Counted from the stretch's first letter, positions 1,271 through 8,948 are shown. The stretch is 8,948 bases of DNA from Candidatus Odinarchaeota archaeon (GCA_038826135.1 JAWBON010000048.1:1-8948), one strand, 5' to 3'. The notes: generated by a model from the letters alone, not told the origin. Made by a program: numbers and translations.

Positions 1271-2743
1271 TTGAATTATATGTGGTTTCTACTAATATTA
1301 GCGTTAGTTCAAGGGTTAATAGAGTGGTTACCTATCTCATCTCAGGGCCAGTTAATTTTATTACTACAAGCTGCTGGGGGATTAGACGCCTCTACCCTGC
1401 TTTCCATATCCATATGGCTGCATCTAGGCACATTAATAGCTGTTCTAGTATACTATCGCAGGGACTATATTAGTATTCTAAAACCATCCGGGAACGATGA
1501 TAAGTTAACGAGAATGTTTATGGTAACCGCTACAGTGGCTACCGGAGTTGTGGCGGTTCCTATCTATCTCTTTTTAAAAAACTCCTTCCCGTTTATTGTA
1601 GGGGATTTTTTAACATTGATCACGGGTATTCTTCTAATATTAACCGGTGTTATTATTCACTTAACTAAGCGTAAAATAGGTGTGAAAGAGATAGGCTCGC
1701 TATCAATAGTAGACGCGCTTATAGTCGGTCTTGTGCAAGGTTTTGCAATACTGCCGGGTATAAGCAGATCCGGTGTAACGATCGCCGCGCTTCTATGGTT
1801 AGGGTATAAGAATCAGAACGCTTTGAAACTTAGTTTTTTAATAAGTGCTCCTGCTGTGATAGGCGCCGTATCAATTGACGCTGTAAGCTACCCCGCCGTC
1901 ATCGCAGATATACCTGTATATATTTTAATATTAGCGTTGATTATAACCGCTATTATAGGTTTTTTAACAATTAAATACTTCACAAAACTCTCGCAGAAAA
2001 TCAACTTCTCCTATTTTTGTATATTTCTAGGCCTTATAATAACTCTAATACTAGGTCCTTTAATACTGTTAGGCGACTCTCTTAGCCTTATATCCTCTAT
2101 CAGCGATGGGTTTATCTGGATTTACAATGCCTTGAGAGATATTGTTTTAATTATAGGACCAGCTGGTCTATTTCTAGTAATGATTGTTCAAGCTGTTTTA
2201 GCCCCAATACCATCAGAGGGTATATTAATCTTAGCAGGTGGCGCTTTCACAATTTCATACGGTTTCCCCACTGGTATATTAATCGCTGTGTTATCAAGCG
2301 GCTTCGGTGGAATTTCAGGGGCTATTTTAAGTTACTTCATATCTAAAGTCGGTGGCAGACCTATAGTTAAAAAACTTTTAAGCGAAAAAACCCTCGCATC
2401 CGCTGATAACTGGTTTAAAAAATACGGAGGATGGGCTGTACTCGTAGGGCGGCTTATCCCGTTTATACCATTCGACGCCATATCTTATGGGGCTGGTCTG
2501 ACAAAAATGAAAACATCATCGTTTATACTAGCCACTGTAATAGGGATCTTCCCACGATCTTTCCTGTACACTTATATCGGATATCTTATTGAGAATTCAC
2601 TGTCAACAGGAAACCTTGAACCTTTCTATATAATTATTATGAGCGTTATAGCTTTAGCAATCCTGCTAGTTTTTCTCTATAAGCACTACTTTATTGATAA
2701 ACGAAGCAGGTCTAATATAGACGCTTCAGTTAACATTTTTTAG
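1271..2743 (+). CDS. uppP: Fusion membrane protein: N-terminal BacA/UppP polyprenyl-diphosphate phosphatase plus C-terminal DedA/VTT (SNARE_assoc; TVP38/TMEM41-like) domain
   Basis: One uninterrupted 490-codon ORF; the likely start is ATG 1280. Residues ~4-260 carry the BacA motifs QGLIEWLPISS.G, HLGTL.A, Q..A.LPGISRSG.T and SFL.S.P. Residues ~293-440 carry the DedA motifs PIPSE..L..GG, G....Y..S..GGRP, WF.KYG..AV..GRLIP..PFD.ISY.AG.T.M and F..AT.IG..P. Confidence 0.92.
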   Translation: MNYMWFLLILALVQGLIEWLPISSQGQLILLLQAAGGLDASTLLSISIWLHLGTLIAVLVYYRRDYISILKPSGNDDKLTRMFMVTATVATGVVAVPIYLFLKNSFPFIVGDFLTLITGILLILTGVIIHLTKRKIGVKEIGSLSIVDALIVGLVQGFAILPGISRSGVTIAALLWLGYKNQNALKLSFLISAPAVIGAVSIDAVSYPAVIADIPVYILILALIITAIIGFLTIKYFTKLSQKINFSYFCIFLGLIITLILGPLILLGDSLSLISSISDGFIWIYNALRDIVLIIGPAGLFLVMIVQAVLAPIPSEGILILAGGAFTISYGFPTGILIAVLSSGFGGISGAILSYFISKVGGRPIVKKLLSEKTLASADNWFKKYGGWAVLVGRLIPFIPFDAISYGAGLTKMKTSSFILATVIGIFPRSFLYTYIGYLIENSLSTGNLEPFYIIIMSVIALAILLVFLYKHYFIDKRSRSNIDASVNIF

Positions 2744-3731
2744 GAGGTAGACCCGACCTGCTTGCCTCACATGCGAAAGGCTCTAAATTATACCAGCTAA
2801 CCTCGTACCGGCTCGGGAAAGAGTTTGATCTAATGAAAAAAGCGTGCGGCGTCTCTCTGTCTTTACTTGCAGACAGGCACTCTAAGCAAACTCTCTTTAA
2901 CTCCTCCCTATCAGTTGAATTTGAGATTAACTGTTCAAAAGAGTATGTTTTATCATACCATTCAAAAACTAATTTATCCCCTCTCTCAGTTACACTCCGT
3001 ATAAGATTCCAAGGCCAAAAAGTACTCATCTGATGTAGAATACTTGGATTATCTTCACTGAAAAACTGGGCGATACCTTCTTTGAATATGTGAATTTTAG
3101 GAGGAGCGCTCTCCTCTTTTCTAGGAATATACCGCTCATACTTGTCACGGACCGGTCGCATAAAACTACTACCCTTAATCCAGTCAAGTAAGTTAACCTG
3201 ATATTCATAGATTTTCTCGCACACGTTCATAATATATTTAACAGCTGCTAAATTACCGTAGTGCGTTACTCCACTTAACTGCGGCCTACCAGTCTTCTTA
3301 AATAGAATTTCCCCAACTTTTTTAACATCATCTAAAGGTATGAAAACATCAATAGCATACCACTCTGTTTCATCCGTTGTAAATCCGAATAAGAATACTT
3401 CCCCTAGATTATAAGCCCCCCTTTCACCTATATTTAAAGGATATGATGATCTATCTGTTTTAACGCTGACAGGTAAAACTTCATAAGCTTTAATTTTATC
3501 ATAGCAAATTAGAAGCTTATGGTAAACCGTTTCTCTAAACCGCTTCTTCTCAGGTATGCTCACTTCAGCTATATTACTTCCTAATAATATTTTTCTAGGA
3601 GGCTTGAAAAACATCTCACGACAGTTATATAATATTTCACCAGGCTCCGTCTCCTCCTCTGAATCGAAAATGGAGAACACTTCCTCAAGCTCGTTATCTT
3701 CAAAAATCTTTTCCCCTTCATCTTCACCCAT
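2730..3731 (-). CDS. Hypothetical soluble protein, 333 aa; acidic N-terminus and possibly two PH-like domains
   Basis: Long ORF from ATG 3731 to TAA 2732-2730 with globular composition, filling the space between neighbouring genes. Its 3' end overlaps the convergent fusion gene by 14 nt. No family recognised with certainty. Confidence 0.8.
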   Translation of the reverse strand: MGEDEGEKIFEDNELEEVFSIFDSEEETEPGEILYNCREMFFKPPRKILLGSNIAEVSIPEKKRFRETVYHKLLICYDKIKAYEVLPVSVKTDRSSYPLNIGERGAYNLGEVFLFGFTTDETEWYAIDVFIPLDDVKKVGEILFKKTGRPQLSGVTHYGNLAAVKYIMNVCEKIYEYQVNLLDWIKGSSFMRPVRDKYERYIPRKEESAPPKIHIFKEGIAQFFSEDNPSILHQMSTFWPWNLIRSVTERGDKLVFEWYDKTYSFEQLISNSTDREELKRVCLECLSASKDRETPHAFFIRSNSFPSRYEVSWYNLEPFACEASRSGLPPKKC

Positions 3732-3819: not shown

Positions 3820-4944
3820 ATGATAGAGTTTTCTGAAAAAAACTTTGTTCAAGAGATTCTTAAGGCTTTTCACAAATTTTTAAGAGAGTATTTTAAAGGC
3901 GTGAATATAATCTTTAAGATTAGTAAGCTTCCGCTTAAAACCTACATGTTAACCTTTGATAATGTAAGAATAGATATAAAAATGAAAAGAGTGAAGGCTG
4001 CTGAAGACAGCTTATACTGGATTACGCTGAGCGCTCCTAAACACTATCAGATAAATATAAACGATTCTGTATTTGAACCCGATAAATTTTCTGAAATAGT
4101 TAGAATAGGCTATGAGAACGGGCTTAGAACAGGTAACCTGTTAAAAATAATAAAATACTTCGCGGAAACATGTGTTTTAACGATTATAATGAGGTTGATG
4201 TCAAATTACGGACTAGCTGAAGAAAACTATAACGTTAAAATCTCGAAATTAATATATCGATTAGAAGACTCGCCTTTTATGAGAGACAGGATTAAGAGAC
4301 TGGTTGATTTTTTAAAAACCATAGGCCACCCCTCATTCAAAGATTTAACTGATATAGAGAGCGTTAGGTTAGGTCTCATTCAAGGGCTGACATTGAAAAA
4401 CTTTAATGTTGAAGTTATAGGAGATATTGACAGTTTAAAAAGGATACTTAAACAATGGTTTGGTATTCTACAGGAGAGTGAGACAGCTGAGCTAAGTGAA
4501 CAATCATACTATATGATCTATGATTTTAGAAGCCTAATATTAGAGAATGAACTTATAAAAGCTGTAAGCAGAGTTGTTGGTAGAATAACACCGGAAACAG
4601 AAATTAAGAGGATCCTTCTTCAACCATCACTTATAGGACTCTATAAAATGTTTCTTAAAAAAGACCCGCCTCTTAAAAACTCATATACTAAGATATCAAC
4701 CCAGTTAAACGAGTTTCAACTTAAAAAACTGTTAAAAGAACTCAGATATATGAAAATCCAGGAGAGAAAATATAACAGGTTAATAATGATAAAAGATTTA
4801 ACCGCCGGTTTAACGGATGATGAGGAAATAAACCATTATATTAACCAGCTTCACAACTTTAATAGATTAAAATACGATGAAATAGTGAATAAGACAGTAG
4901 AGTACGCTTTAACAAAGAATATTATTCGTAATATAATTCTTTAA
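3820..4944 (+). CDS. Hypothetical protein, 374 aa, Lys/Ile/Leu-rich, predicted mostly helical
   Basis: 1125-nt ORF with ATG, an upstream GGTGA and a TAA stop. It is divergent from the 333-aa gene across an 88-nt AT-rich spacer. No recognisable motif. Confidence 0.8.
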   Translation: MIEFSEKNFVQEILKAFHKFLREYFKGVNIIFKISKLPLKTYMLTFDNVRIDIKMKRVKAAEDSLYWITLSAPKHYQININDSVFEPDKFSEIVRIGYENGLRTGNLLKIIKYFAETCVLTIIMRLMSNYGLAEENYNVKISKLIYRLEDSPFMRDRIKRLVDFLKTIGHPSFKDLTDIESVRLGLIQGLTLKNFNVEVIGDIDSLKRILKQWFGILQESETAELSEQSYYMIYDFRSLILENELIKAVSRVVGRITPETEIKRILLQPSLIGLYKMFLKKDPPLKNSYTKISTQLNEFQLKKLLKELRYMKIQERKYNRLIMIKDLTAGLTDDEEINHYINQLHNFNRLKYDEIVNKTVEYALTKNIIRNIIL

Positions 4945-5050: not shown

Positions 5051-6616
5051 GTGAATCAGATGAGTGAAGACAGTGATATAAGATTTAATATGAATGCTAA
5101 GATAATCTTTAATAAAGAATTAACCGGCGCAAGGGAACTTATCAACAAACTCATAGATGAAGCTAATAAAACCGTTCTTTTAAAAGGATTACCGCGTGAT
5201 AAGTTTGAAGAAGGAGCTAAAATCTTAGACTGGTCTGTAAAAGGAGACACTCTCAGTCTGAGAATCGTCTCTGGCAGGTATCTGAGAGCTCACAGCGCAT
5301 TGCTTAGAATATACAAGACGGTGGCTAAAGAGCTGGGGAGTCGGCTTAAAATCGGCGCTAGAAGTATAATAGTTGACGAGTACACGGCAACCATGAATAT
5401 AGACTCTAGTTTAGAGTTTACAATACCTAAAATCCCGACCGTTGAGACTATAGAACGTGAAAATAACACTCTTAAAATATATTTCTCAAACCTTGACGAA
5501 GCCGCCCTTAGAGGCTCTGAAATAGACCGAGCGGTTAAACTTATTCAATCACTAAGCTTACCATCTTTAACTGAACGCGTTACTAAAATAACCCCGGGAA
5601 CAATAATAAGAAAATCTAAACCACGTGAGCACAGATTTAACGAGGATCCTACGATTAAAGCGCTTGAATTAGGATGGTTGGAGGAGTTTCCCGGTAAAGG
5701 GCAGTTCTTCTACACACCACCTATTACAAAATTATATGAGGCTATTAAAAACGTATTCGTAAAAGAGGTGGGTGAGAAACTAGGCTTCCAAGAATGCTTA
5801 TTCCCTAAACTAATACCGTTAGAAGTAATGGATAAAATGAGATATCTGGAAGGCATATGTGAAGGTATGTTCTACTGTTCAGCGCCTGAGCGGGACCCCG
5901 CTTTCTTCGATGATTTTAAAGCTGAACTATATGTGACGAGGAGAATACCTTATAAAAAGCTGAGGGACGCTCTTAAAGACCCTTACTACGCCTTATCCGC
6001 AGCTCAATGCGAACCATTCTACAACTATTTGGGGAGCAAAACTTTGAAGATTAAAAGCTTACCTATAAAATACATGGATCACTCAGGTTACACTTTCCGT
6101 TACGAGGCTGGTGGAGCGAGAGGACTTGAACGAGCATTCGAATTTCAAAGACTTGAATTAGTATGGGCTGCGCTCCCGGAGGAGACGGAGAAAATCAGAG
6201 ACGCCACCTTGCTTGAAACAGAACGCGTAGCTGATGATATTTTAGAGTTAGAATGGTGGACCGAGGTTGGTGACGACCCGTTCTATCTAGTAGGCCGCTT
6301 CTCAGAGGAGCAGGAGGTAAATCTACCTGACGTGCCTAAATACGAGCTTAGAGCAGCTTTACCGTACAAGGGAATGTTTGATAAAAAGAATAGCATCGCA
6401 ACGTCATCATTCAACGTGCACGGTCAACACTATGTTAAGAATTTTTCAACAAAAACAGATAAAGGCGTGGATGTGTGGACAGGCTGCACTGGTATAGGAT
6501 TAACTAGATGGCTTGTAGCATTCCTAGCCCAACACGGTTTTAACAGAGATGAATGGCCTAAAAAAATAATTGAATTAACCGAACCTTTCCCTCAGGTACC
6601 TGATATAAAAGCTTAA
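5051..6616 (+). CDS. serS: Seryl-tRNA synthetase, methanogen-type (type 2, Zn-dependent)
   Basis: It has the atypical alpha/beta N-terminal tRNA-binding domain (F.....I.F...L, ANKTVLLKG, SGRYLRAH.A.LR) and ECLFPKLIP. The Zn-ligand motifs are AQCEPF (Cys), EFQRLE (Glu) and GCTG.G..RW (Cys). Motif 2 reads FRYEAGGARGLER..EF.R.E, and GDDPFY is present. Start is GTG 5051 or ATG 5060. Confidence 0.96.
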   Translation: MNQMSEDSDIRFNMNAKIIFNKELTGARELINKLIDEANKTVLLKGLPRDKFEEGAKILDWSVKGDTLSLRIVSGRYLRAHSALLRIYKTVAKELGSRLKIGARSIIVDEYTATMNIDSSLEFTIPKIPTVETIERENNTLKIYFSNLDEAALRGSEIDRAVKLIQSLSLPSLTERVTKITPGTIIRKSKPREHRFNEDPTIKALELGWLEEFPGKGQFFYTPPITKLYEAIKNVFVKEVGEKLGFQECLFPKLIPLEVMDKMRYLEGICEGMFYCSAPERDPAFFDDFKAELYVTRRIPYKKLRDALKDPYYALSAAQCEPFYNYLGSKTLKIKSLPIKYMDHSGYTFRYEAGGARGLERAFEFQRLELVWAALPEETEKIRDATLLETERVADDILELEWWTEVGDDPFYLVGRFSEEQEVNLPDVPKYELRAALPYKGMFDKKNSIATSSFNVHGQHYVKNFSTKTDKGVDVWTGCTGIGLTRWLVAFLAQHGFNRDEWPKKIIELTEPFPQVPDIKA

Positions 6617-6633: not shown

Positions 6634-6671
6634 TCTTCCTATTCTTAAAACATATCGATGTGCATTCAATT

Positions 6672-8948
6672 ATGGAAAAAGAATGGTACTCTATGAAAGA
6701 GGAGGAGCTCTATAAGGAGCTTAAAACCTCTCCCACCGGTCTTTCAAAAGAAGAGGCTAAAAAGAGATTATTAGAATACGGAACCAACGAGTTACAGAGA
6801 CTGAAGCGTAAATCTAAAATAAAATTGTTTATAGAGCAATTCAAAAACGTTCTGATAATAATTCTGCTTGTAGCAGCGTTAATATCAGTAATACTTGGAG
6901 AAATACTAGACGCGGCTGTTATAGGAGTAATCGTGGTTTTAAACGCGGTAATCGGGTTTATTCAAGAATATAAAGCGGAGAAAGCTATAGAAGCATTAAA
7001 AGAGATGGCTGCTCCTCAAACAATAGTTATAAGAGACGGTAAAGAGACCCCGATACCAGCTAAAGAGCTTGTTCCCGGGGATATAATACTTATAGATACA
7101 GGCGACCGGCTTCCAGCCGACGTCAGACTTATAGAAGCCTCAGGTTTGAAAATTGATGAGTCGAGTTTAACAGGCGAGTCAACACCGGTTAAGAAGAATA
7201 TCGAGCCGATTAAAAACGGTTTAGTTACATTAGCTGAGAGAGCTAATATGGGTTTCAGCGGAACCGTGGTAACATCCGGCTATGGTAAAGGGATTGTAAC
7301 AGCTACAGGTATGAGTACCGAAATAGGTCAGATAGCGACCATGATACAGGAAGAAGAGGATAAGGAAACTCCTCTACAGAGAAAATTAGACACGCTGGGT
7401 AAAAAAATAGGTCAAATAGTAATTGTTTTATGTGTGATAGTTTTCATAGCTGGCTTTCTGAGAGGTATACCTTTCATCGAGATTTTTCTAGCATCCGTGG
7501 GTTTAGCTGTAGCGGCTATACCTGAAGGCTTACCTGCGATAGTTACAATGGGCTTAGCACTCGGTATCCAGAGGATGGCTAAAAGAAACGCTATAATAAG
7601 GAAGCTACCCGCGGTTGAAACCCTAGGAAGTGCAAACGCTATATGCTCTGATAAAACAGGAACACTTACCAAAAACGAGATGACTGTTAGAAGAATTCAC
7701 TTAGCATCCACATCATTTGAAATTACAGGGCAGGGGTACGCTCCTAGAGGCGAATTCCTTAATAAAGGTGAGAAAATAGATCCGCTGTCCCACGAGGATT
7801 TAAAACTTTTAATCACGATTGGAGCGTTATGCAATAATTCAACACTTTCATTCGACGCCCAGAAAAACCGCTGGTTTATCACAGGCGACCCGACCTCAGG
7901 TGCACTAATAGTACTCGCCGAGAAAGCTGGTTTAAGGCAATCTGAACTTGTTAAACAATACAAACGGATTGCGGAGATACCATTCGACTCAGAGCGTAAA
8001 AGAATTGTAACCTTGCATGAAAACCCTGGTGAAGGGCGAATTCTATTTGTAAGCGGCGCCCCTGACGTTTTATTAGAATTATCTGGTTATTACTTGGATA
8101 ACGGTCAAGTTAAAAAACTCGATGAAGATAAGAAGAGGATGTTTCTGAAATTAAATGACGAAATGGCTGCCGCAGCCTTAAGAGTTATAGCTTTAGCTTA
8201 TAAGAAAATGGATGCCGAGAAAGTTATAGTTGAAGACCCGAATGTTGACAGGGGCCTCGTCTTTGCAGGTTTAGTCGGGATGATGGATCCGCCTAGAGCT
8301 GAGGTTAAGGATGCTATAAAATTAGCTTCAAAAGCAGGTATTAAGACTATTATGATAACCGGCGACCATCAGAACACAGCCGCTGCAATAGCTAGGGAGC
8401 TTGGAATACTAGGTGAAGGCGACATTGTCCTTACAGGCAAGCAGCTTGACGAAATGTCTATTGATGAACTTGAGAAAATAGTTGATAAAGTAAAAGTTTA
8501 TGCGCGTGTGTCCCCGAAGCATAAAATGCAAATAGTGAAAGCGTTGAAAAGGAGAGGCAGTATACTTGCAATGACAGGGGACGGTGTTAACGATGCTCCT
8601 GCTCTAAAATCCTCGGATATAGGGGTTTCTATGGGTATTGCCGGAACAGATGTGGCTAAAGAAGCCTCTGATATGGTTCTGGCTGATGATAATTTCTCAA
8701 CTATAGTCGCTGCTGTTGAAGAAGGAAGAATGGTTTACGATAATATTAAGAAGGTGGTTAAGTACCTTATTTCAACCAACTTCGGGGAAATTTTAACCAT
8801 CTTCGTAGGTATCATTATAGGCTTACCGCTACCGATATTAGCGCTTCAAATACTTTGGATTAATCTCGTAACCGATGGGTTGCCTGCATTAGCCCTAGGG
8901 GTGGAACCTGCTGAGGGTGATCTTATGATGCGGAAGCCACGTGATCCA
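6672..8948 (+). CDS. P-type ATPase, type IIA (SERCA-like Ca2+-translocating); partial, runs off the window end
   Basis: Manual translation from ATG 6672 is open for 759 codons to the window end: MEKEWYSM...[19 protein letters not shown]. It contains TGES (7170-7181), M4 [10 protein letters not shown], the phosphorylation motif DKTGT (Asp327, 7650-7652), [27 protein letters not shown]5 YLISTNFGE and M6 [14 protein letters not shown]. Absent from the ORF track because the stop is outside the window. Confidence 0.97.

Follow-up and report, generated by a model that had tools for sequence, protein, structure and literature searches.

The window analysed here, a stretch of 8,948 nucleotides from a Candidatus Odinarchaeota archaeon (GCA_038826135.1 JAWBON010000048.1:1-8948), constitutes an entire contig (C48) of an archaeal bin of 1.26 Mb that comprises 105 contigs and is 93% complete; the sequencing runs that contain this DNA come from hot-spring metagenomes. 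The last gene on the contig encodes a P2A-type (PMR1/SERCA-like) cation ATPase in which two charged residues of the nucleotide-binding (N) domain, the equivalents of Glu442 and Lys515 of SERCA, are both replaced by serine. The reading frame runs for 759 residues without a stop codon and is open at the contig end. A second possible start codon, GTG, lies at position 6660; the orthologs, however, begin at the equivalent of the ATG at 6672 (MEKEW...), and the numbering that places the two serines at residues 409 and 461 therefore holds. A second contig of this bin (G000:C13), which overlaps C48 by 135 bases, carries the missing 151 C-terminal residues of the pump. The overlapping part of C48 (8814-8948) and the end of C13 (L004 1045-1635, minus strand) are identical at the protein level, indicating that the two contigs join inside the pump gene.

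The window protein contains the Pfam domains Cation_ATPase_N, E1-E2_ATPase, Cation_ATPase, Hydrolase and Cation_ATPase_C, and its top relatives in the PDB are LMCA1 (2e-192), followed by SPCA1 and SERCA (1e-168 to 1e-182). A full-length ortholog (P0003) passes the NCBIfam cut-offs of both the PMR1-type and the SERCA-type Ca2+-ATPase profiles: on TIGR01522 it reaches 825, where 798.3 is required, and on TIGR01116 it reaches 729.3, where 703.4 is required. The window protein scores 736.8 on TIGR01522, under the cut-off solely because its C-terminus is missing. For the P-type superfamily profile TIGR01494 the score is 360.9, against a cut-off of 62.3. An earlier note on this DNA, made from the sequence alone, had described the TGES, DKTGT, PFDSERKR, ALRV and GDGVND motifs as intact, and all of them are present on translation (Table 1). 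The ion site is likewise of the P2A type: the Glu of the M4 PEGL motif, the Asn and Glu of M5 and the Asn, Thr and Asp of M6 are in place (the check covers M4, M5 and M6, the M8 position being on the other contig). We take the M5 and M6 residues to be the equivalents of SERCA Asn768, Glu771, Asn796, Thr799 and Asp800. Phe438 and Arg504 (SERCA Phe487 and Arg560) are also kept, and both are invariant across 354 homologs as well as in the clade of proteins that share the serine at the Glu442 position (the Ser clade). Two hallmarks of the P2A N domain are absent, namely the lysine of KGAPE, which is Ser461 here, and the glutamate of DPTE, which is Ser409. The KGAPE lysine is a conserved hallmark and not a catalytic requirement, and P2A membership by homology stands; the window protein is thus predicted, by homology and by every catalytic feature, to be a P2A-type Ca2+ (or Ca2+/Mn2+) pump. 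The genome encodes two more P-type pumps, an MgtA-type Mg2+ pump on contig C49 (L002 1-2598, minus strand; TIGR01524 score 921.8, cut-off 610.75) and a more distant one, 30% identical, on C98. The window gene is the sole P2A pump found in this genome, and the same is true of its counterpart in the single-contig genome of a sister species (G002).

Table 1. Features of the pump gene, in window coordinates; residue numbers count from the ATG at 6672
Feature	Position	Strand	State or remark
P2A-type (PMR1/SERCA-like) cation ATPase gene	6672..8948	+	assigned from Pfam, PDB matches and the TIGR01522 score of an ortholog
TGES dephosphorylation motif, A domain	7170..7181	+	intact
IPEGLPA, M4 ion-site motif (SERCA Glu309 equivalent)	7518..7538	+	intact
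DKTGT phosphorylation motif with catalytic Asp	7650..7664	+	intact
GDPTSGAL	7884..7907	+	Ser409 (TCA, 7896-7898) at the SERCA Glu442 column; Thr408 (SERCA Thr441) kept
Segment with Phe438, Lys443 and Ile445	7977..8006	+	Phe438 (SERCA Phe487, adenine stacking) and Lys443 (SERCA Lys492) kept; Ile445 is ATT, 8004-8006
FVSGAPD	8046..8066	+	Ser461 (AGC, 8052-8054) at the SERCA Lys515 column (Lys of KGAPE)
ALRVIAL	8175..8195	+	Arg504 (SERCA Arg560) kept; Ile506 is ATA, 8187-8189
MITGDH	8352..8369	+	intact
TGDGVNDAP hinge and Mg-site motif	8574..8600	+	intact
M5 (ISTNFGE) and M6 (INLVTDG) ion-binding residues	8769..8879	+	present

The two serines were the subject of the earlier note, which read GDPTSGAL and FVSGAPD with the codons listed in Table 1 and took the replaced residues to be the equivalents of SERCA Glu442 and Lys515. 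Retranslation confirmed the reading, and phmmer alignment to LMCA1 of Listeria (6zhf, 9euq) bears out the equivalence, as the first serine falls on the Glu of GDPTEVAL and the second on the Lys of TKGGPD. Among the 354 homologs outside the Ser clade, the Glu442 column is occupied by Glu in 351 and by Asp in 3, and the Lys515 column by Lys in 352, with a single Ile and a single Gln. An artefact of sequencing or assembly might be suspected from the fragmented state of the metagenome bin and the division of the gene over two contigs; we nevertheless regard that explanation as refuted, with a negligible chance of being correct. In four hot-spring metagenome runs belonging to three studies, of which one run may be the source sample of this genome, independently assembled contigs cover one or both of the Ser codons without a difference; they deviate from the window at seven other positions. 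In two other Odinarchaeum species (83-85% protein identity) the same residues are encoded, by TCT or TCA at Ser409 and by AGC at Ser461. Since the change from Glu to Ser, moreover, takes two base changes (GAA or GAG to TCA), the earlier exclusion of a single sequencing error as the cause can be upheld.

The changes in the pocket are not limited to these two positions. Conservation in the 354 homologs reaches 90% or more at 165 columns; the window protein deviates at six of these, four of which are Glu442 to Ser, Met494 to Ile, Lys515 to Ser and Leu562 to Ile. Six deviations are an ordinary total (the median for other homologs was 5 in an earlier, 153-column version of the scan), and the pump is not generally degenerate. 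The hypergeometric P for their concentration in the pocket ranges from 7e-6 to 3e-4 with the definition of the pocket set, and is to be read as indicative only, because that set was partly defined after the data had been seen. At the Met494 position, which is Ile445 in the window protein, 351 of the 354 homologs have Met; at the Leu562 position (Ile506) Leu occurs in 326 and Ile in 25. Every member of the Ser clade has Ser442, Ile or Val at 494, Ser, Thr or Ala at 515, and Ile562, and the clade leaves Thr441, Phe487, Lys/Arg492, Gly516, Ala517 and Arg560 unchanged. When new conserved N-domain residues, such as a new Lys or Arg, were sought in the clade, none was found, and Ser442 is its only clade-unique residue. 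In SERCA, the ATP cleft is formed by E442, F487, R489, K515, R560 and L562 (PMC7313052), with E442, F487 and K515 critical for binding of the adenine ring (PMC3699649), and M494 is the residue nearest to N1 of ATP in models of SERCA1a (bioRxiv 10.1101/2019.12.17.879825). The SERCA R489 position holds Ser in the pump, yet Ser is usual there in prokaryotic homologs, and window Arg504 aligns with LMCA1 Arg491, which corresponds to SERCA Arg560 (PMC11977196). The remodelled pocket that had been proposed from the two serines is therefore supported, and it extends to Met494 and Leu562. The MgtA-type pump of the same genome retains the pocket Glu and KGAPE and has Ile at its Met494 equivalent (IPFDFTRKRI), which shows that the Met to Ile change alone occurs without loss of the lysine.

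Serine at the Glu442 column is rare. A search of 5.8 billion protein clusters yielded only seven with this residue, all of them Odinarchaeia-like: five are Odinarchaeum-like and Ser/Ser (residues at 442 and 515, respectively), P0007, from a Joint Genome Institute (JGI) metagenome, is Ser/Thr, and P0055, which bears an Odinarchaeia source name, is Ser/Ala. One of the closest matches to the window protein, and the only one of them to bear a source name, is the ortholog P0004 from a source called Ca. Odinarchaeum yellowstonii, which carries Ser/Ser. A profile built from the seven clusters retrieved no further members, its score falling from 1655 to 1382 at the first Glu/Lys protein. The best 150 representatives from a library of 1.84 billion proteins clustered at 50% included no extra member of the Ser clade, being Glu/Lys throughout save for two Asp/Lys, one Glu/Ile and one Glu/Gln protein. 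Locus searches with P0055 in GTDB genomes and with P0007 in JGI metagenomes returned neither protein's own contig. The next relatives are the pumps of a sister genus of Odinarchaeia (g2; about 60% identity), and these are Glu/Lys. In a tree of 74 rows all Ser proteins fall into a single clade, with a Shimodaira-Hasegawa-like approximate likelihood-ratio test (SH-aLRT) value of 88. When the trait columns were removed, the Odinarchaeia clade was retained (100/99) with a three-way split between P0055, the Glu/Lys genus and the other Ser proteins, and a single Ser clade was not rejected by the approximately unbiased (AU) test (p 0.42). The simplest reading of these trees is that the Ser state had one origin; two origins may be the alternative. 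A fourth Odinarchaeum species (G003) has the ortholog as two contig-end fragments (G003:C58 and G003:C9; L036 and L037), with the N domain unassembled.

A second lineage has lost both charges. In a broad sample of 82 GTDB loci, taken from the P0055 locus search, there was one further double variant, an intact pump of 883 residues from an Anaerotruncus metagenome-assembled genome (MAG; L065:2977-5628) that reads GDPTQTAVV and HTTGAPDV, corresponding to Gln442/Thr515. All 120 of its nearest clusters (P0363-P0482) have Gln442, with Thr515 in 119 and Ser515 in one, so that this clade comprises at least 120 clusters; their identity in the N domain is 70% or higher, some contain hundreds of member sequences, and the few that carry source names derive from MAGs of Ruminococcaceae, Eubacteriales and Clostridia. 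These pumps keep Met494 and Leu562, their frames and catalytic motifs are intact, and they score under every NCBIfam equivalog cut-off. In a tree of 104 rows built without the trait columns, the Clostridia clade is nested in Bacillota Glu/Lys pumps, distant from the Odinarchaeia clade; Glu442 changes twice in this tree, and on both occasions Lys515 is lost alongside it. Glu442 and Lys515 are also the only conserved columns that are changed in both clades (P 0.035). The number of independent events in the sample is small: Glu442 changed twice and Lys515 four times, in three cases along with 494. By the earlier note's own terms, its interpretation would fail if such variants were common and independent among ordinary ATP-using P2A pumps; this is partly borne out by the large Clostridia clade with its analogous Gln/Thr pair, whose pumps may or may not be ordinary ATP users. 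The gut origin of the parallel Clostridia clade argues against heat adaptation as the cause of the changes. In addition, the MgtA-type pump in the same cell keeps both Glu and Lys, so the change is not cell-wide.

Based on these results we favour, with a probability of roughly 0.78, a coupled and selected swap of the Glu-Lys pair in a working pump that would have an alternative nucleotide pocket. The two charged residues that flank the adenine-ring edge (Glu442 and Lys515 in SERCA) would have given way jointly to two small hydroxyl residues, and in Odinarchaeia the two hydrophobic lining residues, Met494 and Leu562, would have been re-packed, each by Ile. We predict that the nucleotide is still held by stacking on the Phe487 equivalent and by ribose and phosphate contacts through Thr441, Lys492, Arg560 and the P-domain motifs; because the stacking and these contacts are untouched, nucleotide binding and phosphoryl transfer should proceed. 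In SERCA and Na,K-ATPase the two charged residues are described as forming an ion pair. If one charge were lost, its partner would be left unpaired in a partly buried pocket and its exchange for a small polar residue would be favoured, and we infer that the charges of Glu442 and Lys515 are interdependent, the loss of one favouring the loss of the other. The edge of the base would now be met by hydroxyls able to donate or accept hydrogen bonds, and binding is accordingly expected to be less adenine-specific and probably weaker. SERCA Lys515 is the residue labelled by fluorescein isothiocyanate (FITC), and labelling at this site is expected to be absent in the window pump. The physiological substrate would most likely still be ATP.

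Several observations weigh against this explanation. The pairing of the two losses in Odinarchaeia is probably a single evolutionary event and so, by itself, weak evidence for compensation, and P0055 (Ser/Ala) stands in a three-way split with the Glu/Lys sister group and the other Ser proteins. Two proteins have lost Lys515 while keeping Glu442: P0173 (893 residues, from the representative library) has Lys494 and Ile515, as though the lysine had moved to a neighbouring strand, and P0261 has Ala494 and Gln515. Coupling is thus not obligatory in the direction of Lys515 loss. The SERCA residues concerned are said to be important for MgATP binding, as the title of a 2003 paper by Clausen et al. 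(pmid 12649284) has it. Finally, replacement of Met494 by Ile or Leu in human SERCA2 has been linked to Darier disease (PMC4221357), so that the same change is harmful in another background. The compensatory double charge loss put forward in the earlier note is therefore upheld in part: Glu442 was lost twice and Lys515 went with it both times, but the Odinarchaeia half of this pattern probably counts only once.

Could the gene instead be a pseudogene in the making, or encode a pump no longer able to bind ATP? The pump lacks two residues described as critical for binding of adenine (PMC3699649) and change at Met494 is pathogenic in humans (PMC4221357), but the open frame is intact, the catalytic and ion-site motifs are kept, no other P2A pump was found in the genome, and the substitution pattern is held across lineages down to 58-61% identity. 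Pairwise ratios of nonsynonymous to synonymous substitution (dN/dS) among three Odinarchaeum species are 0.06-0.08 for the whole gene and 0.08-0.10 for the N domain, in a comparison whose synonymous sites are near saturation, and the codon of Ser409 itself varies synonymously between TCA and TCT across species. Decay is thus very improbable, in agreement with the earlier view of the gene as a functional pump. A regulatory change, in which low-affinity modulatory ATP binding or the contacts between the N and A domains in the E2 state would be altered, affecting turnover and not the substrate, is also improbable, if less so. The same site in the SERCA N domain reportedly serves both catalytic and modulatory ATP (Jensen et al., 2006). 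In LMCA1, the pocket residue equivalent to Arg560 also acts at the interface between the A and N domains (PMC11977196); the residues that have changed, however, are those named for adenine binding and not for the interface (PMC7313052, PMC3699649).

An adaptive change of energy source is a further reading that we consider unlikely. By this account the rebuilt pocket would take GTP, or any nucleoside triphosphate (NTP), about as well as ATP, since towards the C6 substituent of the base Ser (or Gln in Clostridia) can serve as a hydrogen-bond donor or as an acceptor, a choice not open to the carboxylate of Glu, which can only accept. Both residues that read the edge of the base are replaced while stacking and phosphate contacts are kept, and the independent Clostridia clade has placed exactly Gln at 442. 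The adenylate kinase of Odinarchaeota accepts all NTPs by means of a Gln whose side chain can be either donor or acceptor towards the C6 substituent (PMC9635829), and the ortholog from Ca. Odinarchaeum yellowstonii (P0004) is Ser/Ser. This support, however, is by analogy, and the MgtA-type paralog in the same cell retains a canonical ATP pocket. P-type ATPases already hydrolyse NTPs other than ATP poorly but measurably, so that an altered preference might be of no consequence to the cell. The bolder proposal, in which the Odinarchaeia Ser/Ser and the Clostridia Gln/Thr pumps would alike be base-promiscuous, NTP-driven cation pumps for which GTP, CTP or UTP would be about as good as ATP because side chains with both capacities stand in for Glu, purely an acceptor, and Lys, purely a donor, rests on the same analogy and seems to us rather doubtful; if true, such pumps would mirror the universal NTP use of that kinase (OdinAK) and suggest a wider, relaxed nucleotide economy in these cells.

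The pump gene is preceded, 43 bases upstream, by a gene for a seryl-tRNA synthetase with a tRNA_bind_4 N-terminal domain (5051-6616, plus strand), an unusual type known from methanogens. Further upstream, a gene at 1271-2743 (plus strand) encodes a fusion protein of 490 residues in which Pfam recognizes a BacA/UppP undecaprenyl-pyrophosphate phosphatase (residues 8-254) and a VTT/DedA-family domain (residues 313-439); the fusion would link the two domains to each other in polyprenyl-phosphate recycling. Two other open reading frames (ORFs), at 2730-3731 (minus strand, 333 residues) and 3820-4944 (plus strand, 374 residues), gave no match in the Pfam search. Pfam likewise recognized nothing in the antisense ORFs within the pump gene (minus strand, 7412-7672 and 7697-7963), which were taken as spurious.

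In P2 pumps the lysine of KGAPE and the glutamate of DPTE count as near-invariant hallmarks, and they are standard handles for labelling and mutagenesis. Two natural lineages have nevertheless dropped both residues in a pump under strong selection, one an archaeal relative close to eukaryotes and the other abundant in animal guts. Both would serve as natural, pre-compensated backgrounds in which to define the roles of the two residues in affinity and base selectivity and the energetic coupling of the pair, and both bear on the question of whether nucleotides besides ATP can drive P-type pumps. They also call for caution in annotation, as checks for the KGAPE motif would wrongly mark these pumps as defective. 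In a limited search of the literature we found no description of natural P2 pumps that lack both Glu442 and Lys515; the papers found treat only the canonical residues.

Among known systems, OdinAK (PMC9635829) resembles the pump by functional analogy only: a side chain that is both donor and acceptor reads the base and permits universal NTP use, in a protein of unrelated fold and family. The Clostridia P2-type pumps (L065, P0363-P0482) represent an independent loss of the two charges at these columns; they differ in being bacterial and from the gut, about 43-45% identical, with Gln instead of Ser at 442 and with Met494 and Leu562 kept. The sister pumps of genus g2 (L009-L011, P0008-P0010), from the same archaeal order, are the nearest relatives outside the Ser clade, yet their four pocket residues are still Glu, Met, Lys and Leu. 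The Odinarchaeum pump lacks the lysine that FITC labels in SERCA. It shares with SERCA1a and SPCA1/PMR1 the conserved cleft residues Phe487 and Arg560 and differs from them in clade-specific changes at three of the six named cleft residues (E442, K515 and L562; PMC7313052), plus M494. The best solved relative is LMCA1 of Listeria monocytogenes (6zhf, 9euq; E 2e-192 over residues 9-762), also a prokaryotic P2A pump of about 900 residues, with the same domain order and the same DKTGT, TGES, PEGL, FDSxRK, ALRV and GDGVNDAP motifs; it has Glu (in GDPTEVAL), Lys (in TKGGPD), Met494 and Leu562 where the window pump has Ser, Ser, Ile and Ile.

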